In this document: positions 8,699-58,048 of the stretch, one piece after another | Layout: each line of letters starts with the position of its first letter | How positions within the stretch are numbered: the first letter of the stretch is position 1 | Origin: Candidatus Hadarchaeota archaeon | Lineage (GTDB): Archaea; Hadarchaeota; Hadarchaeia; Hadarchaeales; JAGGTB01 | Direction: 5' to 3' | DNA: 64,000 nt | NCBI GenBank assembly: GCA_964384105.1 | Contig: CAYLJV010000001.1 | Location: forward strand, 96,001 to 160,000 | Notes under the pieces: generated by a model | The model's input: the letters and a program-made list of their open reading frames with translations, nothing else | Database searches by the model: none | What the model was told of the DNA's origin: nothing | Program-made: the position numbers and the translations under genes

Positions 8699-8701
8699 TT
8701 T

Positions 8702-39468: not shown

Positions 39469-39556
39469 GACTAATCGACCCTTCGAAACTAAACACAAAA
39501 ATAAAACTTTCATTTTTTAGTAAAGTTTATATACCAGTAAGCAATGTTAAATTGCA

Positions 39557-39840
39557 GGGGTTTAGGAGGGAGTAAAAAAACACTTTAATTGTTTGAATCG
39601 ATCTTTGAGATTTTAATAAATCACATATCGCACTCCCGCCGGTGTCTTTTACCTTCTCTTGAATTCATCGAGTTTTCAGCATCGGCGGATTTGGTGTCTC
39701 TCAATAATTTTTAATCTCTTTGTTTAAGGTGGGGGACACCGGGGCCGGGCGATGCCGGCAGGCGATGCTTCGGTCGGCTACCGATCAGCTGCTTTGCAAC
39801 CTGCCCGCGAAAGGGTAACATTCCCGGCCCTTTACTCTCA
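39557..39840 (+). ncRNA. Putative structured ncRNA A, ending in the shared module 39742-39830
   Basis: TATA TTTATATA 39526-33; closing stem 39568-76/39831-39; 17-bp stem with G-U pairs; module shared with 57928-58027. Confidence 0.6.
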
Positions 39841-39905
39841 CTATCACAAGCTCAATTTTTTGAAATAATATGTCTTTCGGTTTTTTTTGGAACTTCTGCA
39901 CAAAG

Positions 39906-39937
39906 AAATTTTTTGTTATGGGTGTAACAAAAAATTT
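39906..39937. repeat. Palindrome AAATTTTTTGTTA-TGGGTG-TAACAAAAAATTT (copy 2)
   Basis: 13-bp perfect arms and the same 6-bp spacer as 8702-8727. Confidence 0.65.
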
Positions 39938-39998
39938 TAAATTCCAAGTATGTTGAGGAGATCTTCCTTAGATAGTTTTGCGAAGCGGTAGTGGGTTG

Positions 39999-40076
39999 TG
40001 GTGGGGCTGCCCGGATTTGAACCGGGGTCACTGGCACCCAAAGCCAGAAGGCTAGTCCTGACTACCCCACAGCCCC
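39999..40076 (-). tRNA. tRNA-Pro(TGG), CCA end encoded
   Basis: GGGGCTG/CAGCCCC-A-CCA; anticodon arm CTGGC-TTTGGGT-GCCAG. Confidence 0.95.
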
Positions 40077-40347
40077 TATTATTTTCAGAAAAGAATTGAG
40101 TAGAATCACTATTAAAATGAGTGTCTGAATTGGTTAATTTCTGGATTAAACCAGTTCTAGTAATAGAGTTTTTATAACTATTGCATATTCATAAATCCAG
40201 ACTCCAGCAAATAGGTTCTAAAAGAGTACTCAGTGGTTGTCAGATATTTGCTGACTACAGTTGGAGATAGTAAAAATATTAATAATTTTGATAGTTAAAT
40301 CTCTCTATTAATACTAGAATATCGCCCTCTCCATGACTCTCTTAATT

Positions 40348-40602
40348 CTATTCTTTGGGTAAGTCGGATAGTCTCTTCAGTTTTATTGTTCCTCGAATCC
40401 TGGTATTTTGGCCGGTTCCGCCATCTACTTTCAATATATCCAATTCTTCTAAGGATAGGAAAATACTGCTCAAACTGTCAATATTTTTTAAGAATTTTTC
40501 CGACAGAGAACATTCTTTTTGGATCTCTTCTAGGTTGTGCCATTCGCAATCGGAGAGGTACTCGACTATTCTATCTATTTTCTCCCAGTTGTCTTTTTTC
40601 AT
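40348..40602 (-). CDS. Small wHTH-like hypothetical protein
   Basis: 84 aa; I-x2-L...WH-x-LEEI...LS pattern. Confidence 0.6.
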   Translation of the reverse strand: MKKDNWEKIDRIVEYLSDCEWHNLEEIQKECSLSEKFLKNIDSLSSIFLSLEELDILKVDGGTGQNTRIRGTIKLKRLSDLPKE

Positions 40603-40720
40603 GGAATGACCAATTTATCTCCCGCTTGAACCTGCATAAAAATTTTGCTAAACAATATTCGGGATAGAGTCGAGACATCTTTTAATTTGTTTAGTTTTCC
40701 TAATGTTTTTCTTATCTATT

Positions 40721-40879
40721 TTACGATTCTTTTTCATATTTGCGTTTTTCTTTGCCAATAATTCTCTTGAGGTAAGTATTTTCTACTGAAGATGATTCTT
40801 TTTTATTTGATTCCGGATCGTCTTCCTTTTTTACCTTTTTGCTTCTTGATTTCTTTTCTTTATGTTTGTCTTTTTTCAT
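40721..40879 (-). CDS. 52-aa Lys-rich hypothetical protein
   Basis: Manual translation: MKKDKHKEKKSRSKKVKKEDDPES...; GGAG upstream. Confidence 0.4.
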   Translation of the reverse strand: MKKDKHKEKKSRSKKVKKEDDPESNKKESSSVENTYLKRIIGKEKRKYEKES

Positions 40880-41002
40880 CTCGAACTCCACTAGACTCTA
40901 TGGGATGATGCTTAATAATAGCAATTATGGATAAAGATAAAATTCCAAAAACCGAATTCTTATTCAAAAACATAGGATGTCTGCCGGTTCGTCTTTTTTA
41001 CG

Positions 41003-41317
41003 CTAGGAAGGTTTTCTTTTGACTACCGCTAACCTTCCTTGGTCGTCCTCGATTTCGAAACCATGACGCTGATACCAATCCAGTCTGGGTTTGAAGGTTT
41101 TTGCGACTATTTCCGAATTTTCAAAGTCTTTTAGAATATGCTTTAGGAGGGTGGAACCAACTCCCTTACTTCTGCTATTTCTTTTGATGTTTATCTGTTT
41201 GAGCTTAATTGGCTCGACGGAGTCTATCAGAGTTGCGCTCCCGATTATTCGACTTCCGTAGTCGTTCCAGACTACATATTTACATTTTTTCCCGGACTCT
41301 TCGCGTTCTATCTGCAT
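41003..41317 (-). CDS. GNAT acetyltransferase
   Basis: RSKGVGSTLL and WYQRHGF motifs. Confidence 0.85.
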   Translation of the reverse strand: MQIEREESGKKCKYVVWNDYGSRIIGSATLIDSVEPIKLKQINIKRNSRSKGVGSTLLKHILKDFENSEIVAKTFKPRLDWYQRHGFEIEDDQGRLAVVKRKPS

Positions 41318-41409
41318 TGTAATCCTAAAAGCAACGATGAGCTACTATAAAAGTCTTGAGGGGAAGCTCATTTAATTGGGACTTTTATGATATCAAAAGG
41401 TGATTTTCT

Positions 41410-42531
41410 CTATTTTTTTTCTAATGCCATGTCTAGGATCTTATTTACTTCTTTATTCAGTTCCTCTGGAAGTCCCAGGATTCTTACGTCCATGAAACCG
41501 CGCGTGATTAAGGATATTGCTCTGTCTCGGGGTATTCCTCGAGTCATTAGATATTCTATCTGTTTTTCGGAAATTTTTCCCACTGCTGCTTCGTGAGTTA
41601 TGTCTGCGCCTTTTTTTCTTGCAACTAGTTCAGGTATCGATCTGATGATGGAGTCATTATCCATAATCAGTCCCCGACATTCAAGGTGCCCTTTACACTC
41701 CGAATTGTTTCCATCTATTTCGCCTCTTACAATTATTTTGGCTCCATCTTGGACTATCGCTCGGGATATCATCTCTGCCCTGCTCTCTTTCCCGTTGAGT
41801 ACTGCCTTAGAACCGATATCTAGATTAGAATTTTTTTGACTGTAGAGAATATTATTGAAGCTAACTTTCGATTCCTTACCATTACAATACGCCTCAGGAT
41901 ACATCTGGACATCTTTGACCGGCTCTAAATTCACATAGTTTGAAGTGAAGCTTCCTTTATCTTCTATCAAAGCTGCACTACGGGGTCTGACAAAGGTTTC
42001 TTCGCCCCAGTCATGAATCATTGTAAAATTAAGCTCTGCGTTTTTCTTGATGTAGTATTCGGTTACGCCTAGATGGGACCCTTTTGTGACTCCGTGGCTT
42101 TGGGTACATCCACTTATTATATGAGCTTTGGAATTTTCTTCCGCTATTATTATGTTATGTACCTTCTGCTCTTGGTTTTGTTTTCTCATTAATAGGCAGG
42201 ACTGAAGTGGGAACATAATCTCTTGATTCGGTAAGATTCTCATGAAATATCCGCCGCCGAATTCTTCAGAAACTTTTTCCGTGAATTCGTCCTTTTCTTT
42301 ATCTATTAAGTTCCAGAGATAGTCCTTCACCCAGTCGTATTTCTCTAGAGCTTCCTTCGTATCCATTAGTTCTAATTTTCCACCGAATTTTTCGTTAACT
42401 TTTGAGTATACAGTGGACTGGTCTACGTGGAATAGTGTTCCAGAACGGGTTTCCTCCTCTTCGATTCCCACCTTGTAGGCTTCTTTGATTATTTCATGAG
42501 GAATTTTCTCTAGCTCTGATCCTTCTCCCAA
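41410..42531 (-). CDS. sufB: SufB/SufD-family Fe-S scaffold (minimal archaeal SUF)
   Basis: GHLECRGL, ITHEAAVGKI and YLMTRG motifs. Confidence 0.93.
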   Translation of the reverse strand: MGEGSELEKIPHEIIKEAYKVGIEEEETRSGTLFHVDQSTVYSKVNEKFGGKLELMDTKEALEKYDWVKDYLWNLIDKEKDEFTEKVSEEFGGGYFMRILPNQEIMFPLQSCLLMRKQNQEQKVHNIIIAEENSKAHIISGCTQSHGVTKGSHLGVTEYYIKKNAELNFTMIHDWGEETFVRPRSAALIEDKGSFTSNYVNLEPVKDVQMYPEAYCNGKESKVSFNNILYSQKNSNLDIGSKAVLNGKESRAEMISRAIVQDGAKIIVRGEIDGNNSECKGHLECRGLIMDNDSIIRSIPELVARKKGADITHEAAVGKISEKQIEYLMTRGIPRDRAISLITRGFMDVRILGLPEELNKEVNKILDMALEKK

Positions 42532-42532
42532 T

Positions 42533-43276
42533 TTACCATCCCTCTGTGACTCTTTCTTTGCAGGAGAAACACTCTTTGTATCCTTTCTCTTTTATTTCCT
42601 TGAGTATTCTATGGGGGTCGGGATAGCATCTGATCTTTTTTCCAAACATGACGCATGCGTGGTCCACATCCACGTGTTCCAAGATGCCACCTTGGTGAGT
42701 AACGATCAAAGCTGAGCTGCTAGTTTCCTTTATATATTCCTGAATCTTTCTTCCTATCAGCTTCAAACTTTCGACATCTACTCCAGAATCTGGTTCATCT
42801 AAGAGCAATAGCTTAGGTTTTAAGAAAAACATCTGGAGAGTTTCAGCTCTTTTTCTTTCTCCTCCAGAAAAACCTACATTTATTTCCCGATCGAGAAAGT
42901 CGGTGAGTCGTAGCGTTTCTATTAACTCCCGCTCTTTTTTAGTAAAGCTATCATTTCTCTCCTTTCCGGCAGATAACTTTAGTAAATCAGATAGTTTTAT
43001 TCCAGTGATTTCAGGCGGATGTTGGAATCCGATAGAAATTCCAAGTTTTGCTCTTTCCTCAACGCTTAGGTTGGTTATATCCTTTCCAAGGAATCTTATT
43101 TCCCCATCGATGTTTTTTGGAGGGACTAGGCCCATTATTGCGTGTAGTAGAGTCGTTTTTCCGGAACCGTTTGGCCCAAATAGGACGTAGCTTTCTCCTT
43201 CGTTTAATTTAAGAGAAATCTTGTCTAGGATTTTTTTGTTTCCCATCTTTACTTTCAGATCTTCTACTTCCAGCAT
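42533..43276 (-). CDS. sufC: SufC-type ATPase with C-terminal CxxC
   Basis: GPNGSGKT, NVGFSGGERKR and LDEPDSGVD motifs. Confidence 0.93.
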   Translation of the reverse strand: MLEVEDLKVKMGNKKILDKISLKLNEGESYVLFGPNGSGKTTLLHAIMGLVPPKNIDGEIRFLGKDITNLSVEERAKLGISIGFQHPPEITGIKLSDLLKLSAGKERNDSFTKKERELIETLRLTDFLDREINVGFSGGERKRAETLQMFFLKPKLLLLDEPDSGVDVESLKLIGRKIQEYIKETSSSALIVTHQGGILEHVDVDHACVMFGKKIRCYPDPHRILKEIKEKGYKECFSCKERVTEGW

Positions 43277-43512
43277 TTTATTTCCAAATCCTGTTATTCG
43301 TCTTTTTTGATACCTTTGATTGTTTATGTTATTAAACTGATGATTGCGCTCTTCTCTTCCTGTCTTGGTGGAAATTTTCGACTGTGGAAAGGAATATCAG
43401 TTTTCCGTAAGATTGATTATGAGCTCGTCTGTAGAAGAGTAACTCTCGGGTTGATCGGCATGTTGATGCTTTAAAATTCAAAAAATATTAGTTATCTCGA
43501 GTAATAGTACGA

Positions 43513-44490
43513 GTGATTAAAGTGAAAATAGTAGCTATTGAGGATCTACAGTTGGAAGAAAATGAAGTAAGGCGGATTTTCTCAGAATTTTTGAAACCGG
43601 ATAACGACTTGAAATACTTCAAGAATAAGCCGGATTCTCAATCTGAGCTAATAGACAGGTTATCGGATGCCGAGATAGCTATTGGCGTTAATTTTCCTAT
43701 TAGTCGAGAAGCGATATCTGAGTCAACGAATCTAAAGATGATATCTACCTCTTTTACAGGATACGATCACGTCGATATCGATGCTGCGACCGAGAGAGGG
43801 GTAGTAGTAACCAATGTTCCGGAATATGCCACTTATGCTGTGACTGAATTGGTCTTTGGATTTATTTTTTCTATTTTAAGAAAGTTAAACAAGGCAGATG
43901 CTGTGGTTAGGACCGGCTGGACCAGAGAAGGTCTTTTAGGGAAGGAGCTTTTCGGTAAGACTCTTGGTGTTATTGGGGCGGGTAATATCGGTCAGGAGGT
44001 CGCTAGAATTGGAAACACTTTCGGAGCAGATGTTCTAATTTACGATTATGCTCAGAGGGAGGATATAGCTGAGAAGGCGGATGCTGAACTCTCCAGATTA
44101 GAAGATCTGTTAAAAAATAGCGATATAATCACGATTCATGTTCCATTGAACGAGGAGACATATGGATTTATTGGAAAAGAGGAGATCGATTTGATGAAAG
44201 AGGGAGCTATTCTGATAAACGCAGCAAGAGGACCAATAGTTATGAGAGAACCACTTATGGAAGCTCTGAAGACAGATAAAATCAGCGCAGGCTTGGATGT
44301 TTATCATGAGGAACCTCTCTCGCCCGATGATCCTTTAACAAAGACCGAAAATACAGCTTTTACACCCCATATAGGCTTCTATACGGAGGAGGCTCTTTTT
44401 AGAAGAACTAAAACAGCTTTTGAGAATATCGAAAGTTTCTTAGAAGGAGACCCTAAAAACGTGGTTAATCCTACCGTTTTAGATAAATAG
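43513..44490 (+). CDS. D-2-hydroxyacid dehydrogenase family protein
   Basis: TGYDHVD, GAGNIG, INAARG and TPHIG motifs. Confidence 0.93.
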   Translation: MIKVKIVAIEDLQLEENEVRRIFSEFLKPDNDLKYFKNKPDSQSELIDRLSDAEIAIGVNFPISREAISESTNLKMISTSFTGYDHVDIDAATERGVVVTNVPEYATYAVTELVFGFIFSILRKLNKADAVVRTGWTREGLLGKELFGKTLGVIGAGNIGQEVARIGNTFGADVLIYDYAQREDIAEKADAELSRLEDLLKNSDIITIHVPLNEETYGFIGKEEIDLMKEGAILINAARGPIVMREPLMEALKTDKISAGLDVYHEEPLSPDDPLTKTENTAFTPHIGFYTEEALFRRTKTAFENIESFLEGDPKNVVNPTVLDK

Positions 44491-44522
44491 ATTTGATAGA
44501 AATTCTAATTTCTAATTATTAA

Positions 44523-45128
44523 TCACTCAAGAAGCGTAAAACTGTCCAAAACTGTGTTTAGCTGAGATTTTAACTGTTCATGGGATCCTTCGTATGAATA
44601 GTAGGAGATTGAATATCCAGAATTATCTCTTTTCAGGAGTATTGTTCTCGCAATTGTATTGTTTTTCTCATTCTCTTGAGTTGCTCTATAGGAGAAATCA
44701 ATCCCTGATGCGTCTTTTATTTGTATATCCTTCTTTTCTTCTAGGAGATTCATGTTTTCGTTGTTTTTAATTGTTGTGTCTATCTGTTCCCATATTGATT
44801 CCAAGGAGTTTCCAAAAGAAGGTACCGTGTAGATCTGTATCTCTGCCTGAGGTCTACCAGCAGTGGAGTTTTCTAGGATAGAAACCCTAAAAGTTCCGAA
44901 GGCTACGGTATTTTCTTCGTGCCAATTAGAGGGATATTCGAAGGAGAATTCGTATTCTTCGCTTACAAATTTTTTGTAGTCTCCATTCTGGACAGATGCA
45001 CTACCCGATGTTTCACTGATATAGAGAGTTCCAACTATAGCTATGGCTATAATAACCGCGATGACCGGTATCGCATCTAGTCCCGTTCCCCGGTTTATCC
45101 TGTCGTGTTCTTCGTCCATGCTAATCAA
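44523..45128 (-). CDS. Membrane-anchored PsbP/DUF1795-like protein
   Basis: N-terminal TM, FSFEYPSNW and C-terminal LDSF. Confidence 0.75.
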   Translation of the reverse strand: MISMDEEHDRINRGTGLDAIPVIAVIIAIAIVGTLYISETSGSASVQNGDYKKFVSEEYEFSFEYPSNWHEENTVAFGTFRVSILENSTAGRPQAEIQIYTVPSFGNSLESIWEQIDTTIKNNENMNLLEEKKDIQIKDASGIDFSYRATQENEKNNTIARTILLKRDNSGYSISYYSYEGSHEQLKSQLNTVLDSFTLLE

Positions 45129-45241
45129 CCAAACAACTCGCTCGTTTAAAGGATTTCCCCTTTCTAATTGACTTTTTGATTCGAAAAACCGAAAATTTTA
45201 TTGAGTTAATTCGGTCGGTTTATATATGGGGAGGTGTTAAA

Positions 45242-45955
45242 TTGGGCAATAAAGATTTTTTTCGATTAAAAGACGTCAATATCTCTTACGGGCGAATCAG
45301 AGTTATAAAAGAAGTTAACATGAAAGTCAAAGCAGGAGAGTCCGTGGCTCTTCTTGGGCCAAACGGCTCTGGTAAAACGACGCTGATGAACGGGATTATT
45401 GGCTTGAAAGATGTGAAGGGGGAGATAATTTTCAACGGAGAGAACATAGCACCGTTGTCAGCTCACGAGATAGCTCATCGAAAAATAGCGCTTGCTTCCG
45501 AGAGGGGTTCGTTCTTCCCGACGATGAACGTGGCAGAGAATCTATTGATGAGCAGTATAACCCTGAGTAGAGACGAGAGGCAGGAGAGGCTGAAAGAAGT
45601 CTTGGGTCTTTTCCCTAGACTCGACGAGAGAGAAAAGCAGGAGGTTCAGAGCTTGAGTGGTGGAGAGAGAAAGATGCTCACTATTGGTATGGCTTTGATG
45701 AAGAACCCCGAGTTGGTCCTTGCTGACGAGCCTGCGATGGGTCTAGCTGTCGGTATAGTCGAAGACGTTATCAAGAAACTAAATGAGTTGAACGACAGGG
45801 GAATTGCTATAATTACCACCGAACAGAATATCGACTTTGTTCTTAAAGTCGCCGATAAGGTATATCTGTTGGATATGGGTGAGTTATCTGAGCCAATTCC
45901 CACTGATAAGTTAGAAGAATCGGAATTTGTAGAAAAAACTTACTTTGGAGAGTAG
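45242..45955 (+). CDS. LivF-like ABC ATPase (orphan)
   Basis: GPNGSGKT, LFPRL-x-ER, LSGGERKML and DEPAMGLA motifs; TTG start after GGAGGTG. Confidence 0.88.
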   Translation: MGNKDFFRLKDVNISYGRIRVIKEVNMKVKAGESVALLGPNGSGKTTLMNGIIGLKDVKGEIIFNGENIAPLSAHEIAHRKIALASERGSFFPTMNVAENLLMSSITLSRDERQERLKEVLGLFPRLDEREKQEVQSLSGGERKMLTIGMALMKNPELVLADEPAMGLAVGIVEDVIKKLNELNDRGIAIITTEQNIDFVLKVADKVYLLDMGELSEPIPTDKLEESEFVEKTYFGE

Positions 45956-46105
45956 GGTTCGAACGATCTTGCTTGTTATAGAGGCGTTTATTTATCGTTA
46001 GCGTCAGCTCTAAGCCGATTTAATTGATTTCTTCTTTAAAAACAAATTAAGGAAAATAAGAGAAAAAAGGCCGAAATCAAAAATATTATCAATATTTAAA
46101 ATCGA

Positions 46106-46465
46106 TCATTGGCCGCCGGACATCATTTTTTGTAGTTTCTTCTGGTTTTCTTGTGCTTTTTCTTGAATACTATCTTCTTTACTTTCCATCGATTTTAGTT
46201 GAGTTTCCATTTTTTCTTTCATGTCCGTTAATTCTTCCATGAGTTCTTCTTTATCCGATTTCACTCCAATAGGTCCAACTACTCTAAAAACATCATCATC
46301 TTCATCGACGTCTTCGAGAGCATCGAACGCTTTGTCGAGATACTTTTGCTGTGCCTTGATTTGGTGCTTGTGTTCGTCTATCTGTTGTAGTTGTTGTTGC
46401 TGTTTTTGGAGTTCACCTATCATTTGCTTTGCTTCATCTGACATATTTTGTGGATTTGGTTGCAA
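46106..46465 (-). CDS. pfdB: Prefoldin beta subunit
   Basis: Q-rich coiled coil and VFRVVG hairpin; TTG 46465 behind GGAGGTG. Confidence 0.88.
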   Translation of the reverse strand: MQPNPQNMSDEAKQMIGELQKQQQQLQQIDEHKHQIKAQQKYLDKAFDALEDVDEDDDVFRVVGPIGVKSDKEELMEELTDMKEKMETQLKSMESKEDSIQEKAQENQKKLQKMMSGGQ

Positions 46466-46707
46466 TTTTTTCACCTCCTGAAGTCGGAGTATAGTGTTAA
46501 TACTGTCTCCCCTAGTAAAAAAGGTCGGAATTGTCAGATTTCGATAAAATCTAAATATTTTTGAAAAAATTGCCCTTGACAAGACAAAAAATCAAAATGT
46601 TCTCTTTTTTTGGGAGCCTTCCTGTCTATTAAAATCATTGAGGGCCGTTCTTCCTCCAACTGTTATGAAAATAAAAAATCGAAAGAAGACTCGGGTTTGA
46701 GAAATAT

Positions 46708-47232
46708 TTAACTGGAGATTTTTTCTTTGGAGAGACTTAAGTGATCTTTTTCTATTTCGACTATAGCTTTGAAGAGTTTCCTGACCTCCGGTTCTTCTGC
46801 CTCTGAGGCAAACCTTGAATAAGCTTTTATTGCTCTATCCTCTCGCTTGTGAGCTTCTCGATAATTCTCTAATGCGTCTTTTGAGCATTTTTCGTAGCTT
46901 GGTATCTCTTCTTCGGGCACATCTATAACTTCGGCTAGCGCTTCAGCATGCTCTGCTTCTATTTTTCCTAGTCTTTTAAAAATCGCGGCGTCTGATTCGC
47001 TCTCCGTTTTTTTAGCAGCGCAAGCATAGAACTTTGCGTTGTCAATTTCCAGTTCTATTGCCTCTAAAACGTTTTTACGAGACTTCTCAGAAACTTCTTT
47101 GGGCATTAATCGTTCGTATTTCTCTAATTTTTTCAAATATTCTTGATGAGCTCCACAGTAGGGACAGTTCTCTGGTTTCGAGTATCCCAGATACGTTTCT
47201 CCACAAATCTCACATCTGAAAGCTGTGAACAT
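46708..47232 (-). CDS. Reverse rubrerythrin-like protein (rubredoxin plus ferritin-like domain)
   Basis: CEICG, CPYCGA and ExxH di-iron motifs. Confidence 0.9.
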   Translation of the reverse strand: MFTAFRCEICGETYLGYSKPENCPYCGAHQEYLKKLEKYERLMPKEVSEKSRKNVLEAIELEIDNAKFYACAAKKTESESDAAIFKRLGKIEAEHAEALAEVIDVPEEEIPSYEKCSKDALENYREAHKREDRAIKAYSRFASEAEEPEVRKLFKAIVEIEKDHLSLSKEKISS

Positions 47233-47381
47233 ATAAAAATCACCTCTTCATATTTATAATCTATTTCGAAGCTTTTAGCCTCTTTGTGTGAGTGGATTTC
47301 GTTATTGATCTTTTACGATGAATTCGTAATAATAAAGATAATAAAATAAAAGATTATTAGAAGAGTTTCTCCATATTCCGT

Positions 47382-47838: not shown

Positions 47839-48771
47839 GTGAGCTCTATTGAGGATTCCGAGAAGGAATCCGTTAAGTGTCCGAGCTGCGGTGGCACTTC
47901 CGTGGTGAGGGACTATCAGCACAACGTCACAATATGCGCTGATTGCGGCAGGATCCTAGAAGAGAATATAAAGGATCGGGGCCCGGAGTGGAGAGCATTT
48001 AGCTCCGAGGAATATGATAATAAGAAGCGATCAGGACCTCCTTCTACCCAGACTATTCATGATAGGGGTCTTTCTACAAAGATAGATTGGAAAAACAGGG
48101 ATGCACGGGGTAAGAATCTCTCACCTGAAAAGTCTCGACAGATGTATCGATTAAGAAAGTGGGATAATAGAAGCAAGATCGCCAATTCGGAGGATAGGAA
48201 CTTAATTATTGCACTCAGTGAGATGAGTAGAATGGTTTCTCAACTCGGTCTGCCGAGAAGTACGCAGGAGATAGCATCCAAAATTTACCGAAAAGCTGTC
48301 GAGGAAGGCCTGATTCGCGGGAGGTCGATTGAGGGTATTGTCTCGGCTACACTTTACGCGGCGTGCAGGGAGGCACAGATGCCTCGAACCCTCGAAGAGA
48401 TCGCTGAAGTGAGTCGAATTGATATTAGAAAAATTTCAAGTAATTATATGTTTTTAATCCGAGAGTTGGATCTCCATCTTCCGCCGACCGATCCAGCGAG
48501 ATATATAACTAGATTTGGAAGTGAACTTGGCCTTTCCGGCGAAGTTCAAACTGAGGCGATGCATATGATCAAAAAAATTCGAGATAAAAAGTTGACTTCC
48601 GGTAAGAGTCCCAGCGGGACGGCTGCGGCGTGTCTATACATTGCGGCTTTGAGGGGTGGAGAGAGGGTAACTCAGAGGGAAGTTGCGGAGGTTGCTGGAG
48701 TGACCGAAGTCACTGTCAGAAACAGATACAAAGATACGATCGACGATTTAGGTATCGAGCTTCAGCCTTGA
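47839..48771 (+). CDS. tfb: Transcription initiation factor IIB
   Basis: Zn ribbon, GPEWRAF, RGRSIE and TQREVAEVAGVTEVTVRNRY motifs. Confidence 0.96.
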   Translation: MSSIEDSEKESVKCPSCGGTSVVRDYQHNVTICADCGRILEENIKDRGPEWRAFSSEEYDNKKRSGPPSTQTIHDRGLSTKIDWKNRDARGKNLSPEKSRQMYRLRKWDNRSKIANSEDRNLIIALSEMSRMVSQLGLPRSTQEIASKIYRKAVEEGLIRGRSIEGIVSATLYAACREAQMPRTLEEIAEVSRIDIRKISSNYMFLIRELDLHLPPTDPARYITRFGSELGLSGEVQTEAMHMIKKIRDKKLTSGKSPSGTAAACLYIAALRGGERVTQREVAEVAGVTEVTVRNRYKDTIDDLGIELQP

Positions 48772-49674: not shown

Positions 49675-49777
49675 CCAATCCTATTCCTTTTTCATCATAA
49701 ATAAATCCACTTTTACATGAGCATGGCTAAAGGATCTAAATGAAGAATAGTTTTTTCTGTTAATTAAGGATTCTAGT

Positions 49778-50674
49778 TTATTTGAAAAGATCTCCGATTT
49801 CTTTTTTAAGTCCGGTAAGCATCCCTCTTACCAAAGCTTTCCACTTTTGCTCACCTTCTTTGAATATTAGCGCAGAGCAGTCTATACCGTTCACGATTTC
49901 ATCGGTCATCCAACCAAATAAGTACCGAGTGAAAACGTACTCTTTAGTTGGGCCCAGTATGATTAAATCGTAATCCTTTTTCGTTTCTTCTATCAAAGCT
50001 TTCGAAATTTTTTTATGTTGAATTATTTTTGTCTCGCACTCTACACCTAGATTATGCATGAAAGTTTTTGGTCCATTTAGGATTTCTTGAGCTTCTTCCT
50101 CAGTCTCGTCCTCTTGAAGAATATGGACTAATACACAGTCGGCCTTTGTTCCTTCAATTAATTTGGCGGTAACCGACAGCCGCTTTCTATAGTCGTAATC
50201 TTTGTACCCTACTGGGAAAAGAATCTTTTTTATATCCTGAACATTTCCAGTTCTATTTTTGAAGACTAGAACGTCTCGATCCGAATTGGCAAATATACGT
50301 TCAAGCGGATTTTGTCTCAGTGACCTTAGACTCATCTTGCCGCCCCACCCCATTAATATTAGATCGGAATCATTTTCCTCTGCCTCTTCGAGAACCCCTT
50401 GCCACACAGCCTCACTATATCTTATCTTTGGGACTATCTTTGTCCATCTACTAGCTGCCGTTTTCTCTCGATACCTCTCTATAGTTTTCGATGAACGACG
50501 CCAATCCTTTTGCATTTCTATGAAACTTCCTTCTTCGACTACAGTGAGAAATATGATTTTTCCATGATCTACTAGAACAGAAGCGAGTTCTGTTATTCTA
50601 TTTACATCGTTTGGATGTCGTACGGGTACTAGCAAGTTTTTATATCTATATTCATTCCCCAACATTATCCCCAT
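49778..50674 (-). CDS. Tandem universal stress protein at the end of the kdp operon (KdpQ-like position)
   Basis: Two USP domains (LLVPV...DLILMGW and ILFPV...DLIILG). Confidence 0.82.
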   Translation of the reverse strand: MGIMLGNEYRYKNLLVPVRHPNDVNRITELASVLVDHGKIIFLTVVEEGSFIEMQKDWRRSSKTIERYREKTAASRWTKIVPKIRYSEAVWQGVLEEAEENDSDLILMGWGGKMSLRSLRQNPLERIFANSDRDVLVFKNRTGNVQDIKKILFPVGYKDYDYRKRLSVTAKLIEGTKADCVLVHILQEDETEEEAQEILNGPKTFMHNLGVECETKIIQHKKISKALIEETKKDYDLIILGPTKEYVFTRYLFGWMTDEIVNGIDCSALIFKEGEQKWKALVRGMLTGLKKEIGDLFK

Positions 50675-51236
50675 CCATAAGTCTTTTTACATCTATATTC
50701 AGTAAGAGGACGTTTACTCTCTTCAGTCCAAACATTCCGAGTAGAGGGTCCTCTGTATGTTTCTCGATCAGGTCCTTAAGTTTGCTTTCGGAAACGCCTG
50801 TATTTTTAGAAACACGAGGTATCTGCAACATCGCAGAATTAACTGTTATGTGGGGATCGAGAGCCGACCCGGACTCCGTAACTAGGTCCGATGGGACTTC
50901 TAAGTTCTCTGAGTTTTCCGAGATTTCCTCCAAAATTTCTCTAACTCTTTCGGTGAGTTCTGGGTTTTGTGGACCAAGGTTTTTGCTTCCCGATTTTCTA
51001 GCATCGTAATCTATTGAAGAAGGCCTTCCGTGGAAGTATCTTGAATCATCGAAATCCTGGCCGATCAACTTTGAACCGACTATCTCATTTTCATATTCAA
51101 CTAAGCTACCCTGGCGTGAGTCACTCCAGATCTGGCCTACCAATCCAACAGATAAGGGATAAGCTATTGAGAAGATTATTATTCCTACTATAATCAGTCT
51201 AACTGCCACGGATAAGTTCTTCAGTTTTTCATTCAT
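50652..51236 (-). CDS. kdpC: K+-transporting ATPase subunit C
   Basis: [23 protein letters not shown] and VNVLLLN motifs. Confidence 0.95.
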
Positions 51237-53281
51237 CCAAACACCCCAATTGTAACGAGTAATAGGTCAATAAGCTTGATAGACACAAAAGGAGCTATCA
51301 ATCCAGCTCCGCCGTATAATAAGAGGTTCTTTCTCAACAACACGGAAGCACTTTCGGCCTTATAATCCACTCCCCTCATTGCTAGGGGGATCAGGAACGG
51401 GATTATCAACGCATTATATATTAGGGACGCCACGATGGCGCTCTGTGGAGAAAATAGATTCAACACATTCATCTTTGAGAGTGCGGGAATACCGGCGCTG
51501 AAAATTGCCGGAACCAGAGCAAAGTATCTGGAAACATCGTTTGCAATACTGAATGTTGTTAAGGACCCTCGAGTCATCAACAGTTGCTTTCCTATCGACA
51601 CAACTTCGATGAGCTTTGTTGGATCGGAATCCAAATCCACCATGTTTCCAGCTTCCTTAGCAGCGTTCGTACCCGCCTGCATAGCGAGACCTACATCTGC
51701 TTTCGCAAGAGCGGGAGCATCATTGGTTCCATCTCCAGTCATACCAACTAATTTTCCTTCTCCCCTGATTTTCTCAACTAATTCAATTTTTTCCTCTGGT
51801 TTAAACTCGGCGTAATATTCGTCTATTCCCGCCTTCTCAGCAACAGCCCGAGCGGTTCTCTCATTGTCTCCAGTGGCCATGATAGTTTGAACTCCCATAT
51901 TTTGGAGTTCCTCGATTCTCTCTCGGATTCCCGGTTTCAGCTCATCATGAAGCTCTATTAGACCTACTATGTCTTTGTTGACCGCTACTGCCAGAGGGGT
52001 CCCTCCTTTATCGGATATGTTGTTAGCTTTTTCTTCCAAATCCGATGGGATATTTTCAGCATACTCTCTGATGGCGTCGACAGCCCCTTTTCTAACTTCA
52101 GTTCCATCGGAAAGATCAATTCCACTCATTTTTGTTTTAGCAGAGAACTCAATGAAATTATTTTCCGATAATTCCCCTTCATCAATATTGACCTCCATTT
52201 CATCGGCAAGAACCACAACGGACCGACCCTCAGGGGTTTCATCAAAGTATGATGCTTTTAGACTCGCAGAAGCGATGTCCGAATCTTCATATTTCCCCAG
52301 TGGCACGAAACTTTCGGCCGTTCTCTCTCCAGTAGTGATGGTTCCAGTTTTGTCCAAAATTAGTGCATCGAGGTCACCTGCCGATTCCACGGCTTTACCT
52401 GTCTTGGCTATTACGTTGTCTTTGGTCACATTTGTCATACCTGCGATCCGGATAGTAGCTAGTAAGGCCCCAATTGTAGTTGGCATCAGACCAACCAATA
52501 ACGCAATTAGATTGGCCACGTCTACGGTCATATTCACGTAGGTTCCAAAAAATCTCATAGTTGTTACGGCCACCAAATAGATGAAGGTAAAACTGGCCAG
52601 AAGTAGGATCATCGAGATTTCGTTCGGTGTTTTTTCCCGAGTAGCCGATTCTACCAATCCAATCATCTTGTCCAAAAATGATTCTCCTGGCTCTGCAGTG
52701 ACTTCAATTTTCAAACGGTCGCTGAGCACCTCGGTCCCCTCCGTTACCGAGCTTCTATCACCACCACTCTCACGAATAACTGGTTCAGACTCCCCCGTAA
52801 CTGCCGACTCATCGATTGAAGCACTCCCTTCTATGACGGTTCCATCTCTGGGGATAAGATCTCCTTCTTCCACGAATACTAAGTCTCCTTTAGCTAGGTC
52901 ATCGCTATCCACTATCTCGTAATTTCCATCGGAGATTTCCTCCAAACCAAGATCCTTCGAGAGTTTTTTTCCTTTCGTCTCGGTTTTCAGTTCTCTCAAA
53001 CTATCAGCGTGAGCTTCACCTTCCAGTTCTGCAAGAGATTCAGCATAATTTGCGAAAAGAACTGTGAATAGTAAGAGGGCCGTGATTATACCATAGTACC
53101 ACTGAGCCTCGGCACCGCCAAAGAAAGGAGGGTATAAGGTTAATATGAAAGTCATAATTGTGCCGATTTCTACGACAAACATTACGGGGTTTTTGATTAG
53201 ATATGTGGGGTCGAGCTTGATGACCGCCTCCTTCATTGCATCCAATTGTTTATCCCAATCAACCACTCTACAGACCTCCAC
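51233..53281 (-). CDS. kdpB: K+-transporting P-type ATPase subunit B
   Basis: TGES, PTTIG, DKTGTIT and [10 protein letters not shown] motifs. Confidence 0.97.
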
Positions 53282-55007
53282 TCAGTAATTCTCCTATCGG
53301 GCCGAGGGCGAGAGATGGTAGGAAAATTAGTCCTCCTATTATTACCATAACACCTATGAAAAGTACCAAAAAGGAGATGCTTTCTATTTTCAAAGTTCCT
53401 TCTGTTTCTGGTCTAATCTTCTTGCTCGCTAGAGATCCAGCTATTATTATCTGGCCTGTTATTGGCAGATATCGACCGAGGAGAATTTGAATACCATTCG
53501 TTAGGTTATAGAAAATACTATTGTCAACAAGCCCTTCAAAACCACTCCCATTATTAGCCGAAGCCGAGAACATTTCATACAGTATCTCAGCAAAACCTCT
53601 GAATCCGGGGTTACTGATCGCTTCTTTCCCGATATCCGTAATGACGGCCAGGGAAGTAGGAATCAGCACGAGAGTGGGTAATAGCAATATTATCAGGGCA
53701 GCAATTTTTATTTCAGTCCATTCGATCCGTTTCCCCAGATATTGGGGTGCACGCCCGATCATCAGACCTGCTATAAAAACAGCGAGGAATAGATAAGTCA
53801 TTAGATTGAGAAGTCCAACTCCTAGTCCATTATAGAGGCAATTCATGCTCATTCCAAGGAAAAGCGGAAGTGTACCTTGTGCAGTGTAACTGTTATGCAT
53901 ACTGTTTACTGCACCATTGGTGGTAGAAGTGGTGGAAACACCCCAGAGGGCACTCATAACCGGCCCGAAACGGACCTCCTTGCCTTCCATGTTACCGTGA
54001 AGTTGAACAACTCTGCCATTCTCAGTGACAACGTTAACCCCTGGATTAGGCTGGAGTTCTCCGTTTATACCAACGAAAAGGAGTCCTAGGAAAAGTACAA
54101 AGAAGGCACCTATGAGAACTGCCGAATGCCATCTCTTGCCAATCCATATTCCAAAGGCATATATTACGGAGATAGGAGCTGCCAGTAGGAATAGGTTAAG
54201 GATTAAATTAGAGAGCACGGTAGGGTTTTCGAAGGGGTGAGCTGCATTTGCAGCGAAGTATCCACCTCCATTAGTTCCAAAAATCTTTATTGATTCTATG
54301 CCCGCAACTGGGCCAATTCTTATTGCCTGTTCTCCTCCTTCGATCGAATTTAAAGCTACTTGTCCACCAAAAGTCTGGGGCACTCCCTGGGAAACCAAAA
54401 ATACCCCCAGTATTATGGCTATCGGAATAAGAAAGCGTACTGATCCCCTTATTAGGTTGGTGTAGAAGTTACCAAGATCGTCGTTTTCCTCGTTCAAAAG
54501 ACCCTTTGTAAAACCAACTGCGAGACTGAGTCCTGTGGCCGCGGACATGAACATCGCCAGTCCAACACCGAACAACTGACTGAAATAAGATAGACTCTCT
54601 CCGGCGTAATGTTGCTGATTAGTGTTAGTTACAAAAGTGGAAGCTGTATGAAATGCTTGATGCCAGCTCATTCCGTCTAGATTGAGTGGATTTAGAGGTA
54701 GAATACCCTGAAAACGGAAAATAAAAATTAATAGCGTAAATAAAACTGCGTTAAATACGAACAAAGAAACAAGATATTTCCGCCAGTCCATGCCTTCGTC
54801 AGGGTCGACACCAATCAATTTGTAAATAAGGTTCTCTAATGGAGAGAAAATTCGATTCAATTTTTTGATCCAACTGAGCCAAGATGGAAGGGAACCCTTA
54901 CTGTTCGTTTGGTCTCTAAATATCCAAGCAAGATATTCTCCAAGGAAGTATATTAGAGCTAATAGAAAAACCAAGAAAAATAGTATTTGGAATATCACAC
55001 CGAACAT
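53268..55007 (-). CDS. kdpA: K+-transporting ATPase subunit A
   Basis: TNTNQQ, GTNGGG, TNGAVN and ANNGS filter motifs. Confidence 0.97.
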
Positions 55008-55020
55008 AATTTCTCCTCAA

Positions 55021-55110
55021 TTAGAACTTGGTCGGGTTAAACAGCACGTATGCAAGATAAATTATCAAGAAAACTACAACACCTAGATAAACATAATCAC
55101 CTATTTCCAT
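55021..55110 (-). CDS. kdpF: KdpF (29 aa)
   Basis: Manual translation: MEIGDYVYLGVVVFLIIYLAYVLFNPTKF; directly upstream of kdpA. Confidence 0.9.
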   Translation of the reverse strand: MEIGDYVYLGVVVFLIIYLAYVLFNPTKF

Positions 55111-55347
55111 CCTTCTCCCCTTTATCAAACATTAGGAAACTTCTTTCTTTTTAGTCTCCCAGTTTCTCTTTTTCCTTCTTACATGATATTTGTTTTCCTG
55201 CCCTCAGTTACCAAACAAAAATTTTTGATGAAGAAGTCTTTCTTTTTATTACCTGGTCTTCTACAGGCTTTCATCGAAGATTTTTTTGCCTGATTTGGAT
55301 TCTTACTTCGTCAATCTTTCATACGTCGGTATACATATCATATACCG

Positions 55348-55548
55348 ATGACAACAACTGTTCGTATAGATAAAGAGACTAGAGAACTACTGAAGGAAGC
55401 GGGTAGTAAGGAACAAACTTACAACGATATAATTCGTGAGTTGTTGGAGATGTGGGGAATGTTCATCGAGGACTTGTATTCTATTCTGGAAGAAACCAGG
55501 GAAGAGGATTGGTTGGACACTGACGAGCTCAGGAAGGAACTTAAATGA
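55348..55548 (+). CDS. RHH-type antitoxin-like protein
   Basis: MTTTVRI..ETRELL...TYNDIIREL with acidic tail; overlaps a toxin relic at ATGA. Confidence 0.75.
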   Translation: MTTTVRIDKETRELLKEAGSKEQTYNDIIRELLEMWGMFIEDLYSILEETREEDWLDTDELRKELK

Positions 55549-55705
55549 CTGTTCTTTGAAGCCCAATTCTAGAAAGTAACTGGGAAAGCTCGAGAAAGAG
55601 ACACAAACTATGAATAATTAACAAGGTAGAGGAGTTCCACACTAAGGACAGAGGTGACATTTACGTTCTGAGAGTTACTCATTGGAAACATGCGTACCGT
55701 GAGGA
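55545..55705 (+). pseudogene. Degraded RelE/ParE toxin
   Basis: Fragments SRK*LGKLEKETQ, IINKVEE and DIYVLRVTHWKHAYR spread across frames. Confidence 0.55.
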
Positions 55706-55861
55706 TGTTATAAGTGCTCTTCGGGGAAAAATCGACAGATGATGATTCTTGTTTTTTGTAAATCTCTAAATTTTTCTTTAACGGTAAGATTGTTGAATAA
55801 AGAGTAAGTAGACTTTTAGTAAAACTTAATAATTTTGTAAACATATTTGTTTACAGATACT

Positions 55862-56074
55862 ATGCCACAAGTTCAAGTAAGAGTTTCGGATGAAATGATG
55901 AAAACTCTTGATGAGTGGATCAAGGCTGGTAAATACAAGAGCAGGAGTGATGCTATTAGAACTGTTCTAGCTAAACACGAAGAGAGGGAAAAAACTCGTG
56001 AGTTCTACGAAATGTTGATTAAGAGAAGTAAAGAATCTAAGGGACACCCTGAGAAGCTTGTTTTTTTGGAGTAA
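55862..56074 (+). CDS. CopG/Arc/MetJ RHH antitoxin
   Basis: VQVRVSD...G-x-YKSRSDAIR. Confidence 0.85.
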   Translation: MPQVQVRVSDEMMKTLDEWIKAGKYKSRSDAIRTVLAKHEEREKTREFYEMLIKRSKESKGHPEKLVFLE

Positions 56075-56079
56075 TCTCT

Positions 56080-56346
56080 ATGGGGTTCGAAGTCTTGTTG
56101 CATCCAAAGGCAAATGAATTTCTCGTGAAATCAGATAATGATCTTCAGTATCGTATCAAAGATAAGCTAAAAAAGCTAGGTTCAAATCCCAGAAGAGGAA
56201 AAAAGTTAGTACATTCAGACTTCTGGAGGTTAAGAATTGGAAATTATCGTGCAATATATGAAATTGATCAAAATGAGGAGGAGGTTGTAATTTTGTTCAT
56301 AGGGCATAGAAAGGACGTCTACGATGATTTCTCGAGACTAATCTAG
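56080..56346 (+). CDS. relE: RelE family toxin
   Basis: WRLRIGNYRAIYEI...IGHRKDVY. Confidence 0.92.
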   Translation: MGFEVLLHPKANEFLVKSDNDLQYRIKDKLKKLGSNPRRGKKLVHSDFWRLRIGNYRAIYEIDQNEEEVVILFIGHRKDVYDDFSRLI

Positions 56347-56602
56347 TTTGGGTTTTCCATGTAGAAATAATTTTTCCACTTCAATTAAGAAGAATTTTTT
56401 AGATTTTCTGTATTATGATTTTATGAATTTAGCTTTTTGTTTAGAAGGACCTTACTTAAATTCTCTTTTATTAATCTCAAAAAAATAATTCATTAATTAG
56501 CTAATCTATATGTGTAGAAAGCCTCTTGAGAGTAATACTAGTGTATAAGGTCATCTCAAAGGTCGAATCCACTTTTCGAAGGGAATAAGATAATTCCACA
56601 TC

Positions 56603-56860
56603 TTATAAATTGCAATTAATCCAATCCTTAAATTTTTGGAAATCCTTGGCACCAGCCTGATCAGCGATACTCCGAAGTGTTCCCGTTCTAATTGACTTGT
56701 GTAACGGAACTATAACAATTCGAACATCATCCTGTTTAGTTGGATGTTCGTAACGAAGCTTCACGTGGCTACCCGTCCGATCCACAACTTGGAATTGGTT
56801 CTTCGTAAGGGCCTTCACTATCTCATGACCAGAAAAATCAGATGATGTCATGTAAACCAA
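56603..56860 (-). CDS. hicA: HicA family toxin
   Basis: TGSHVKL, VPLH and GTLRSI motifs. Confidence 0.9.
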   Translation of the reverse strand: MVYMTSSDFSGHEIVKALTKNQFQVVDRTGSHVKLRYEHPTKQDDVRIVIVPLHKSIRTGTLRSIADQAGAKDFQKFKDWINCNL

Positions 56861-57163
56861 TTACTGCATAAACTTAGGGAGTACTCTACTGTTCTCGCGG
56901 GTCTTTTTGACCTTATCATGATCAATACCGAGGCTTTTAAGGATCTCTCGCTCCTTCTTAGAAATATCGATAGATTCATTGATCTTTTTCCTGTAGAGTG
57001 TCACTGCCTCATCGAGGTTTTTCAGGGCCGCTTGGCGGGTCTTACCCTGGCTCGCAATACTCGTATCTCCATCCTTTGCAATCCATATGTCATCCTCCTT
57101 CCAGAGAAGGTAAGGAGCTTTCTCGGTCGGATTTTTCAGTCTTGTTGCCATTTCATTTTCCAA
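56861..57163 (-). CDS. hicB: HicB-like antitoxin (short, no DNA-binding domain)
   Basis: ASQGKTRQAALKNLDEAV; upstream of hicA. Confidence 0.85.
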   Translation of the reverse strand: MENEMATRLKNPTEKAPYLLWKEDDIWIAKDGDTSIASQGKTRQAALKNLDEAVTLYRKKINESIDISKKEREILKSLGIDHDKVKKTRENSRVLPKFMQ

Positions 57164-57502
57164 TATCTTTTTCTTACCTATAAAAACCCGTACCTCTGAT
57201 TATTGGTATTTTCCGAAGGAAAGCCCAGGGAATATCTCATTTAAGCTCTTCTTTTTCTCCGTTAATGAGCTCTATTTAAAATACGCTAGAGAATATTAGA
57301 ATCAGGATATACCACACGATGCCAAAAATAACGTGAAGTCGAAATCTGCACCTAAACGAGCTAAACAGCCTCAAGCATATCCCACAGACCATTTAATAAG
57401 TTTTCTCTTAGCCTTTCAAGGTTCTTTAGACTTTTATTAAAGAATTAAAGCTCTTTTTAACTCTTGTTTAAAAATAAAAGGTCCATAGTAAGCTTAAAAG
57501 CA

Positions 57503-57576
57503 AGCCCCGGGTGGGATTTGAACCCACGACCTGCCGCTTACAAGGCGGCCGCTCTTACCAACTGAGCTACCGAGGC
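57503..57576 (-). tRNA. tRNA-Thr(TGT)
   Basis: GCCTCGG/CCGGGGC; anticodon arm GCCGC-CTTGTAA-GCGGC. Confidence 0.95.
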
Positions 57577-57783
57577 ACTATTAGTTTTCTGGTAGTAGTT
57601 GTTTTTCTAATAATGGTTACTACTATTAATGTGCTAATTTTTGTTTTCTAGTAATATGGAATATTGAGTTAAAATCACACGTTTTTAAGTAATATACACT
57701 ACATTTAATAGTTATAACACCGTAATGAAAAATGAAAATCGGTGGAGGTGCTGAGAAGACATCAAAAGATCAAAGTTTCAGTT

Positions 57784-58048
57784 ATCACGGTCCCGTCTGG
57801 CTCTGCTTTTTCTCCTTGACTCCGACTGTTAAATAGGCCGGACGGATAAACGCCCTCCTCTACTGAGGATGAAGTTTTTCACCCCCTACTGACTCAGTAA
57901 GGGGGAGCGAACCGCGAGGTTTAGTTTTTAGGAGGCCGGGCGCTGCTGGTAGGTTGTTTTTTCAGTTGGCATCTGAGAGATTCATAAAAAGCCTACCCGC
58001 GAAAGGGTAACATTCCTGGTCTCCTAACGTCGTGGTTCATCAGAGCCA
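57784..58048 (+). ncRNA. Putative structured ncRNA B, containing the shared module 57928-58027
   Basis: Closing stem TGGCTCTG/CAGAGCCA, several hairpins including a GCGA tetraloop, and a 21-nt exact match to copy A. Confidence 0.6.

Follow-up and report, generated by a model that had tools for sequence, protein, structure and literature searches.

A lineage-restricted family of structured RNA genes in a Hadarchaeota archaeon

Background

The window analysed here is a stretch of 64,000 nucleotides (nt) from a Candidatus Hadarchaeota archaeon (GenBank assembly GCA_964384105.1, here G000; 1.62 Mb in 12 contigs, about 40% G+C), corresponding to G000:C1:96001-160000. Two of its gaps between genes hold a hairpin module. 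Copy A of the module, GGGCCGGG...CCCGGCCC, lies at 39742-39830 (+) and is adjoined by a tRNA-Pro gene (39999-40076, -). Copy B, TTAGGAGGCCGGG...CCTGGTCTCCTAA, lies at 57928-58027 (+) and is adjoined by a tRNA-Thr gene (57503-57576, -). The gaps around both copies contain no + strand open reading frame (ORF) of at least 60 amino acids. The best A-ATPase matches of the genome (62-63%), which include Hadesarchaea metagenome-assembled genomes, likewise suggest Hadarchaeota; for its PEP carboxylase, a protein atlas was uninformative on taxonomy. An earlier note on this DNA had placed the two copies at these positions, in ORF-free gaps near tRNA genes, and reading of the sequence bears out both statements. 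We report that the two copies belong to a real, uncatalogued, lineage-restricted family of structured RNA genes.

Copy number and architecture

The 21-mer CCCGCGAAAGGGTAACATTCC is identical in copies A (39804-39824) and B (57996-58016), as had been noted before. Allowing up to three mismatches, it has two matches in the window, where none of 100 shuffled sequences gave any (expected number 0), and five matches in the G000 genome, where the reversed control gave none. The five copies found in this way (A-E) were used to build a covariance model of the module (R1), and a further model (R3, 237 positions) covers the whole unit body. R1 has seven matches in G000 at 51.6-115.4 bits, and R3 finds the same seven at 163-231 bits. 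The two copies beyond the 21-mer set, F (C1:397609-397720, -) and G (C4:84893-85008, -), carry the variant CCGCGAAAGAGGTAACGTYCC. A covariance search of this kind had been proposed in the earlier note, where the module was described as present twice; the number is now seven.

The homology also exceeds the module first described, and extends from a TATA-like box to a T-rich end over about 300-350 nt. The order within the unit (~300 nt) is TATA-like box, purine-rich 5' leader, hairpins H1 and H2, hairpin H3 (the module described earlier) and T-rich 3' end. An upstream TATA-like box is found in all seven copies (TTTATATA, TTTTTATA or TTTTTAAC), with A-rich sequence before it. These boxes may act as promoters, judging from sequence and position; the sigma-70 promoter scan is a bacterial model and is not applicable to archaeal boxes. 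The purine-rich block reads GGGAGGGAG, GGGGGTGA or GGAGGTG and is followed by a variable AT-rich leader. H1 has the form CCGCCGGTG...CACCGGCGG with CTTCTCTTGA in its loop, and H2 the form GGTGTCCC...GGGGCAC with TTTCTCACCTCCTTGTTT in its loop; copies B and G have an additional small hairpin between H2 and H3. A 3' tail of ~50 nt follows H3 and ends in TTTTCGGTT or a longer T-run.

For copies D and E, blastn aligns 355 nt at 76% identity, a span that reaches from the promoter-box region to TTTTCGGTT, and other pairs are 70-77% identical over their alignable parts. The variable parts are the H3 apex and the 5' leader. Within H3, the 17-nt 3' joiner CGCGAAAGGGTAACATT is invariant in the five copies A-E while the stems and the apical loop vary, and in F and G the joiner has one extra A (GAAAGAGG). 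A 52-amino-acid frame is present in copy D, but no frame is conserved among the copies in the paralogue alignment. As many gaps of this alignment are not multiples of three, the unit is not a small coding gene.

Conserved fold and strand

RNAalifold was applied to the seven copies and gave a consensus fold with H1, H2 and a three-part H3. Over the whole unit, 91.3% of the 287 cells (41 pairs in seven copies) can pair, and sliding the 3' partners by 1-3 columns lowers this to 40-52%. Ten of the 41 pairs change on both sides, against 3.4 +/- 1.5 after shuffling (0 of 500 shuffles reach ten) and 2-5 after sliding. The paired fraction is 85.7% of cells for H1 (8 pairs) and 81% for H2 (6 pairs). 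For the module alone, with eight sequences including a copy from a second genome (G002, see below), the paired fraction of cells is 94.1%, and both-sided change occurs in 8 of 30 pairs (3.0 +/- 1.2 shuffled, 1-3 slid). The inner stem of H3 is 100% paired in the eight sequences, with both-sided change in three of its six pairs. One such change separates GGCAGG/CCTGCC of copy A from GGTAGG/CCTACC of copy B, and the outer stem of copy B keeps its pairing with two G-U pairs. The covariation of the inner stem and the G-U pairing of the outer stem had been read from copies A and B before, and hold in both.

On the + strand the unit of copy A folds with -98.9 kcal/mol (z -4.18, 0 of 200 shuffles as good), and on the - strand with -83.3 kcal/mol (z -2.60). 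Summed from the per-pair table, the whole-unit helices of the seven copies contain 28 G-U cells. Since these would be A-C on the other strand, and since the + strand folds better, we assign A and B to the + strand, as the earlier note did. The TATA-like box and the T-tracts of A and B are on this same strand. The features of the two copies are collected in Table 1.

Table 1. Positions of features of copies A and B in the window
Feature	Position	Strand	Basis
Copy A, TATA-like box TTTATATA after AAAG, ~23 nt upstream of the purine block	39526..39533	+	read from sequence
Copy A, purine-rich, Shine-Dalgarno-like 5' block GGGGTTTAGGAGGGAG, predicted transcript start	39557..39573	+	copy alignment; X5 contig starts at 39559
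Copy A, hairpin H1 CCGCCGGT/ATCGGCGG, large loop with conserved CTTCTCTTGA at 39653-39662	39636..39688	+	fold; copy alignment
Copy A, hairpin H2, loop diverged to AATCTCTTTGTTT (other copies TTTCTCACCTCCTTGTTT)	39693..39740	+	fold; copy alignment
Copy A, hairpin H3: outer stem, asymmetric junction, inner stem, variable apical hairpin	39741..39831	+	R1, 113.5 bits
Copy A, invariant joiner CGCGAAAGGGTAACATT with possible mini-hairpin C-GAAA-G (GNRA loop)	39806..39822	+	invariance in A-E; mini-hairpin predicted
Copy A, 3' tail CTCTCACTATC..., T6 at 39856-39861 and T8 at 39881-39888, likely termination signals	39832..39888	+	copy alignment
Copy B, putative TATA-like stretch TTTAATAGTTATAA	57704..57717	+	copy alignment
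Copy B, purine-rich 5' block GGTGGAGGTG	57741..57750	+	copy alignment
Copy B, hairpin H1 CCGTCTGGC/GCCGGACGG, loop with TTTCTCCTTGA	57793..57845	+	fold; sequence
Copy B, hairpin H2 CGCCCTCC...GGGGGAGCG, loop with TTTTTCACCCCCTAC	57851..57909	+	fold; sequence
Copy B, extra hairpin AACC-GCGA-GGTT between H2 and H3 (copy G has another there)	57910..57921	+	fold; copy alignment
Copy B, hairpin H3, extended outer stem with two G-U pairs	57928..58027	+	R1, 92.9 bits
Copy B, invariant joiner CGCGAAAGGGTAACATT	57998..58014	+	copy alignment

Searches against known RNA families

All 4227 models of Rfam 15 were used, with the gathering threshold as criterion, and matches at E<=10 were considered in addition around copies A, B, E and G. 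No family reaches its gathering threshold in the units; the window and the four loci with the other five copies give only tRNAs and signal recognition particle (SRP) RNA. At E<=10 the four copies give only noise, of 14.7-24.5 bits against thresholds of 43-115. Such a scan had been proposed earlier, and the module has no significant match in it.

The earlier note could not assign the module to SRP RNA, RNase P RNA or H/ACA RNA, and the Rfam scans and inspection agree with this. The genome has a single gene for SRP RNA (RF01857, C4:84328-84638, 190.1 bits) and a single gene for RNase P RNA (RF00373, C3:148469-148758, 219.8 bits), and the units match neither model even at E<=10. Archaeal H/ACA small RNAs (sRNAs) have a pseudouridylation pocket, an upper stem with a kink-turn (K-turn) or K-loop, and a lower stem that is followed 3' by an ACA (ANA) box. 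By eye, the sequences 3' of the H3 outer stem (UUUACU, UUAUU, UCAAA, UUAAU, UUCAU, UUCCUU, AACG) contain no ACA box, the sole ACA being inside the junction strand, and the copies have no tandem G-A K-turn in a consistent register. C/D box RNAs are recognised by a C box (RUGAUGA) and a D box (CUGA), and a K-turn by a 3-nt bulge followed by tandem sheared G-A pairs. The 5' junction strand of the module varies (CGAUGCC, CGCUGCU, CGUUCC, CGUGCC, CGCUCC, CGCGCC) and, by eye, has no GA partner opposite as a C/D box RNA or L7Ae K-turn would. A full-text literature search, limited to titles and abstract openings, found no such RNA. By any test run, the unit belongs to no described family.

Occurrence in related genomes

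Many of the genomes searched are incomplete metagenome-assembled genomes (56-95% complete), and absence here means 'not found in those searched'. R1 was run over 41 genomes (G000 and 40 relatives) and matches in two of them, G000 and G002, which are of the same genus; one of the six other genomes of the genus thus has a match. A model that includes the G002 copy (R2) gives 2/65 genomes of the order and 2/66 of the phylum. With R3, four of nine genomes of the family match at E<=1, credibly only G000 and G002 (48.3 bits). The weak R3 matches, at 13.9-21.1 bits in G004, in G005, at G002:C45 and at four additional sites of G000, were rejected as noise, since by eye they appear to be pyrimidine-rich coding stretches.

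The copy in G002 is the module alone, found at 39.6 bits with R1, which was built without it. It is situated in a phosphate-type ATP-binding cassette (ABC) transporter operon, within the 175 nt that separate the second permease gene from the ATPase gene, and on the same strand as these genes. It is followed 3' by ACTCACCTCC (ACUCACCUCC as RNA), and by GGAGGTG ~70 nt further on, and its junction strand has C-GAGA-G in place of C-GAAA-G. The two pst-like loci of G000 have no module. The earlier argument against a 5' riboswitch holds for A and B, downstream of which there is no gene on their strand. As the copy of G002 is inside an operon, the module as such may have a cis-acting role. The pst-like operon of G002 (L116, G002:C102:940-4163) ends with a gene of the low-molecular-weight phosphotyrosine phosphatase/arsenate-reductase family (PF01451) at locus 224-673 (-).

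Sequence patterns were also searched. The 17-mer with up to two mismatches has nine matches in eight of the 40 relatives, none of them, by eye, with the module stems and four of them at one 23S rRNA site; the covariance models have no match in these eight genomes. At this site, a 23S rRNA hairpin loop of G014, G022, G033 and G029 (L008, L009, L010, L015) reads CCCUCGAAAAGGUAACA (in L010 CCCUCGAAAGGAUAACA). The form CCCUCGAAAAGGUAACA agrees with CGAAAGGGUAACA of the module at 12 of 13 positions, which could be chance or a common loop motif. The corresponding part of the 23S rRNA of G000 is absent from the assembly. A 20-mer has no locus in either genome_contigs or viral_contigs, blastn against phages and plasmids gives no match, and a first gapped pattern has no locus in metagenome_contigs. 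A looser gapped pattern gives eight loci among all species representatives (genome_contigs), of which one is real (L147, 73.8 bits); because its score exactly equals that of the G002 match, it is not counted as independent. The same pattern gives eight loci in metagenome_contigs, none real (best 16.8 bits).

At the site of copy G, relatives have conserved the order PP-loop gene, SRP RNA, tRNA-Ser. The syntenic site with SRP RNA and tRNA-Ser was searched in four relatives with filters off and no unit was found (best E 0.43). As the far flank is not syntenic in relatives, an empty site is not callable there.

The H2 loop and the 3' end of 16S rRNA

In G000 the 16S rRNA ends 3' with GAUCACCUCCU. 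The 9-mer UCACCUCCU of this sequence occurs exactly in the H2 loops of copies D and F, and CACCUCC occurs exactly in that of C. The 9-mer has one or two changes in E, G and B and is diverged in A. Other pyrimidine-rich parts of the unit are the 3' tail (CUCACCUUCCC, CUCACUAUC) and the H1 loop (CUUCUCUUGA). Upstream of ORF starts in this genome, the pentamers GGAGG, GAGGT, AGGTG and GGTGA are enriched 3-6 times, and we therefore take the organism to use Shine-Dalgarno-like sites. The 16S gene itself is split over two contig ends (G000:C9:16055-16757 and C6:69770-70532), the assembly breaking inside it, and a tRNA-Ala-like sequence is found 3' of 16S in the spacer.

Contigs from RNA libraries

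Four runs were aligned to 39300-40100; there was no RNA library with the organism itself at a high share. In RNA library X13 a 252-nt contig corresponds to the unit alone (39599-39850, with 14 substitutions and 6 gaps), and its difference 39642 G>A turns a G-U pair in H1 of copy A into A-U. RNA library X6, from another study, has a 237-nt contig, again the unit alone (39593-39832). A 243-nt contig covering 39559-39798 comes from run X5, with library type not on record, and DNA run X1 contains the locus at >=99% identity, broken at the repeat. Stretches of the window that these runs leave uncovered, and runs with a small share of the organism, were not counted as evidence. The contigs hint weakly that related organisms in salt-lake and sediment samples have a discrete RNA of unit size.

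Genomic surroundings

The neighbours of the copies are unrelated housekeeping genes, and no protein gene recurs beside them: TrkH-like and VTT-domain genes at copy A, triose-phosphate isomerase at B, nitroreductase and PEP carboxylase at E, flavodoxin and TenA at F, SRP RNA and tRNA-Ser at G. Copies C and D are each followed on their own strand by a TFB paralogue, at distances of 788 and 1432 nt. A same-strand ORF begins ~70 nt downstream of copy E and ~135 nt downstream of copy F, and none of copies A, B and G is followed by a gene on its strand.

The TFB paralogues next to C and D are in tandem (L031, G000:C3:114230-124131; locus 1116-2069 and 4343-5278, -), with one RNA copy before each, and a phage-integrase-family gene (locus 8181-9299) is about 1.8 kb from copy C. 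The repeat distance is 3227 nt for the TFB genes and about 2570 nt for the C/D units. Because the TFB genes repeat together with the units, we attribute C and D to tandem duplication of a ~3-kb segment and not to transposition. With a TFB paralogue as query for related loci, no relative was found.

Some further observations were made in these regions. The locus of C and D has two repeats unrelated to the RNA, one of 60 nt (at 2800 and 8104, 87% identical, with a 33-nt part also at 594) and one of 30 nt (at 2353, 2699 and 7420), which may be remnants of attachment sites or a further small RNA. A third, canonical TFB gene (window 47839-48771, NF001658, 421.5 bits) is found between copies A and B, 8-9 kb from each, giving at least three TFB genes in the genome. 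Within the window, Rfam reports a tRNA at 9316-9454 (45.2 bits) whose anticodon arm carries an insertion of 69 nt, where ARAGORN reports none, and the tRNA-Arg(TCG) at 8435-8529 has a 23-nt insertion. Both insertions are probably archaeal introns.

Discussion

The copies, the conservation of their fold, their strand, the lack of an Rfam match and the narrow distribution are established here. That the units are a real family of structured non-coding RNA (ncRNA) genes is in our judgement very probable. The earlier suggestion of a new ncRNA family is supported by the seven structured paralogues, the lack of an Rfam match, the stem-preserving changes and the promoter-like boxes that the units carry themselves.

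For the function of the family we propose the following explanation. Copies A and B would be two of seven paralogous free-standing genes for a structured ncRNA of ~300 nt, each with its own TATA-like box and T-tract ends. The RNA would consist of the purine-rich 5' leader, H1 (loop CUUCUCUUGA), H2 (loop UUUCUCACCUCCUUGUUU) and H3, a long hairpin with the invariant 17-nt junction strand. H3 would be an autonomous and separable handle, bound by a protein or held in a tertiary contact, which would give stability. The exposed pyrimidine-rich loops, including the anti-Shine-Dalgarno 9-mer, would pair with purine-rich ribosome-binding sites of mRNAs, and the RNAs would act in trans on translation or mRNA stability, as bacterial multicopy regulatory sRNAs do. 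The family would have grown by duplication of chromosomal segments, after which the copies would have diverged with the fold kept. A trans-acting RNA or ribonucleoprotein (RNP) of some kind appears fairly probable to us. The explanation as a whole, the seven-gene structured RNA family together with its mechanism, is held tentatively and falls slightly short of being probable. Pairing with ribosome-binding sites as the specific mechanism is doubtful. A bolder form, an archaeal riboregulator in which a hairpin loop shows a copy of the 16S 3' end and titrates Shine-Dalgarno-led mRNAs or a factor binding the 16S 3' end, while the H3 fold binds a protein or ligand and is usable also as a cis switch in operons, we regard as rather improbable.

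Several points weigh against this explanation. Since all seven sequences are paralogues from a single genome, the shuffle control makes the support for the fold look stronger than it is; A5, the module alignment of eight sequences, was fitted to the model. Four of the seven copies have the 16S-like 9-mer in degenerate form, and the motif was noticed after the fact. The contigs from the RNA libraries have low depth (2.3 and 4.3), come from relatives 90-95% alike and not from this organism, and show neither ends nor strand; DNA carry-over is possible. As only 2/66 genomes of the phylum carry the module, no broad conservation stands behind any function. By eye, six of the seven copies seemed to have a closing helix formed by the 5' purine block and the 3' tail; it was rejected: its duplex energy is -13.8 kcal/mol for cognate and -12.7 kcal/mol for non-cognate combinations (p 0.16). 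Pairing of the 5' block with the H2 loop gave -19.6 and -18.2 kcal/mol, respectively (p 0.16). Because cognate combinations are no better than non-cognate ones, both pairings were dropped; the purine-rich and pyrimidine-rich stretches simply fit one another in any combination. Finally, the pairing in the H3 junction is ambiguous, with three alternatives: UGCC with GGUA, UGC with GCG, or the mini-hairpin C-GAAA-G. The mini-hairpin, which may form inside the junction strand, is consistent with the extra A of F and G opposite a bulged G, and with C-GAGA-G of G002, which is still GNRA.

Other explanations of the units have to be weighed against these trans-acting RNAs. The RNA could be an RNP scaffold or guide, serving as the RNA component of a protein complex such as one for modification, processing or nuclease cleavage, with H3 as protein handle and the variable parts setting the substrates. 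A junction strand that is invariant while the stems vary, the variable H3 apex and 5' leader, a module separable enough to stand alone in a second genome, and a size and complexity like those of RNP RNAs all agree with such a role. The invariant junction strand amid varying stems and apical loop, and the module standing alone, also fit the earlier description of a conserved handle with variable cargo. However, no recurring protein gene is found beside the copies, the variable segments match only the paralogues in the genome (blastn, word 9, E<=1e-3), and no K-turn, H/ACA or C/D features were seen, and we consider this role unlikely. A riboswitch-like sensor acting in cis would use H3 as a three-way junction binding a ligand or protein, and the 3' flank (CUCACCUCC-like) would compete for a Shine-Dalgarno-like sequence and so control translation. 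The module of G002 suits this, being inside a transporter operon with GGAGGUG ~70 nt beyond, as do the invariant junction nucleotides and the close same-strand ORFs downstream of E and F. It is nevertheless quite improbable for the family: A, B and G have no such gene downstream, C and D are far from theirs, the downstream genes have no common function, the units come with promoter-like boxes and T-tracts of their own, none of the riboswitches in Rfam matches, and the pst-like loci of G000 are without the module.

A mobile or selfish repeat, either similar to miniature inverted-repeat transposable elements (MITEs) or short interspersed nuclear elements, or the RNA end of an IS200/IS605-type element (TnpB omega RNA), would account for several copies in one genome and for their absence from most relatives (2/66 genomes; one of six others of the genus). 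The integrase gene near copy C and the one clear TnpB gene of G000 (C3:6807-7001, L135; Cas12f1-like_TNB, 75.2 bits; 393-amino-acid open frame) also speak for it. Yet an identity of 70-77% is far from recent transposition, and the edges shared by the units are a promoter-like box and a T-tract, without terminal inverted repeats or flank duplications in the alignments (by eye). Target-site duplications, one sign by which the earlier note would have recognised a MITE, are thus not seen in the flanks, and no transposase is beside the copies. C and D arose with TFB genes by tandem duplication. Compared with the TnpB locus, the seven units have only matches of 9-13 nt (blastn-short), no unit adjoins such a gene, and Rfam gives no HEARO match. 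No reverse transcriptase was found in the genome, and the phage, plasmid and viral searches were negative. The mobile repeat that the earlier note had offered as an alternative is therefore very improbable. Self-cleaving or otherwise catalytic RNA is scarcely credible, its sole point in favour being the strongly conserved unpaired junction: no ribozyme family among the 4227 Rfam models matches even at E<=10, and the RNA-library contigs run unbroken through the module. For the catalytic handle of the earlier note there is accordingly no evidence.

If the units are genes for trans-acting RNAs, the closest systems in possible mode of action may be the bacterial multicopy regulatory sRNAs and the C-rich-loop sRNAs. 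Qrr1-5 of Vibrio, RsmX/Y/Z and CsrB/C are sRNAs of 100-350 nt with known partners (Hfq, CsrA/RsmA) and known targets. Like these, the units form a set of diverged paralogues within a genome, and each would have a promoter and a terminator of its own if the boxes and T-tracts are read correctly, with conserved stems and short single-stranded motifs that recur in loops. They differ in the archaeal host, in the lack of sequence or Rfam similarity and in the H3 junction domain, which has no counterpart there. RNAIII and RsaE/RoxS of Firmicutes are C-rich-loop sRNAs that pair with Shine-Dalgarno sequences. The units resemble them in C/U-rich hairpin loops complementary to ribosome-binding sites; there is no homology, and the motif here is a full anti-Shine-Dalgarno copy and not UCCC, and is degenerate as said above. 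With archaeal SRP (7S) RNA and RNase P RNA the units have in common a length of ~300 nt, a GC-rich fold in an AT-richer genome and own genes near tRNAs, and copy G adjoins the SRP RNA gene. Those two RNAs are, however, single genes elsewhere in the genome, whereas the unit has seven copies and matches neither model.

Conclusions

The RNA family is new and of a known general kind; its fold, its copy number and its 16S-like loop are unusual for archaea. Its reach is limited by the narrow distribution (2/66). Very few structured regulatory or RNP RNAs of uncultured archaeal phyla are known, and families of diverged paralogues are rare in archaea. The compact fold with its invariant junction strand is a good subject for structure probing and pull-down, and the loop with an anti-Shine-Dalgarno sequence leads to a testable idea on how translation may be controlled in an archaeon that uses such sites.

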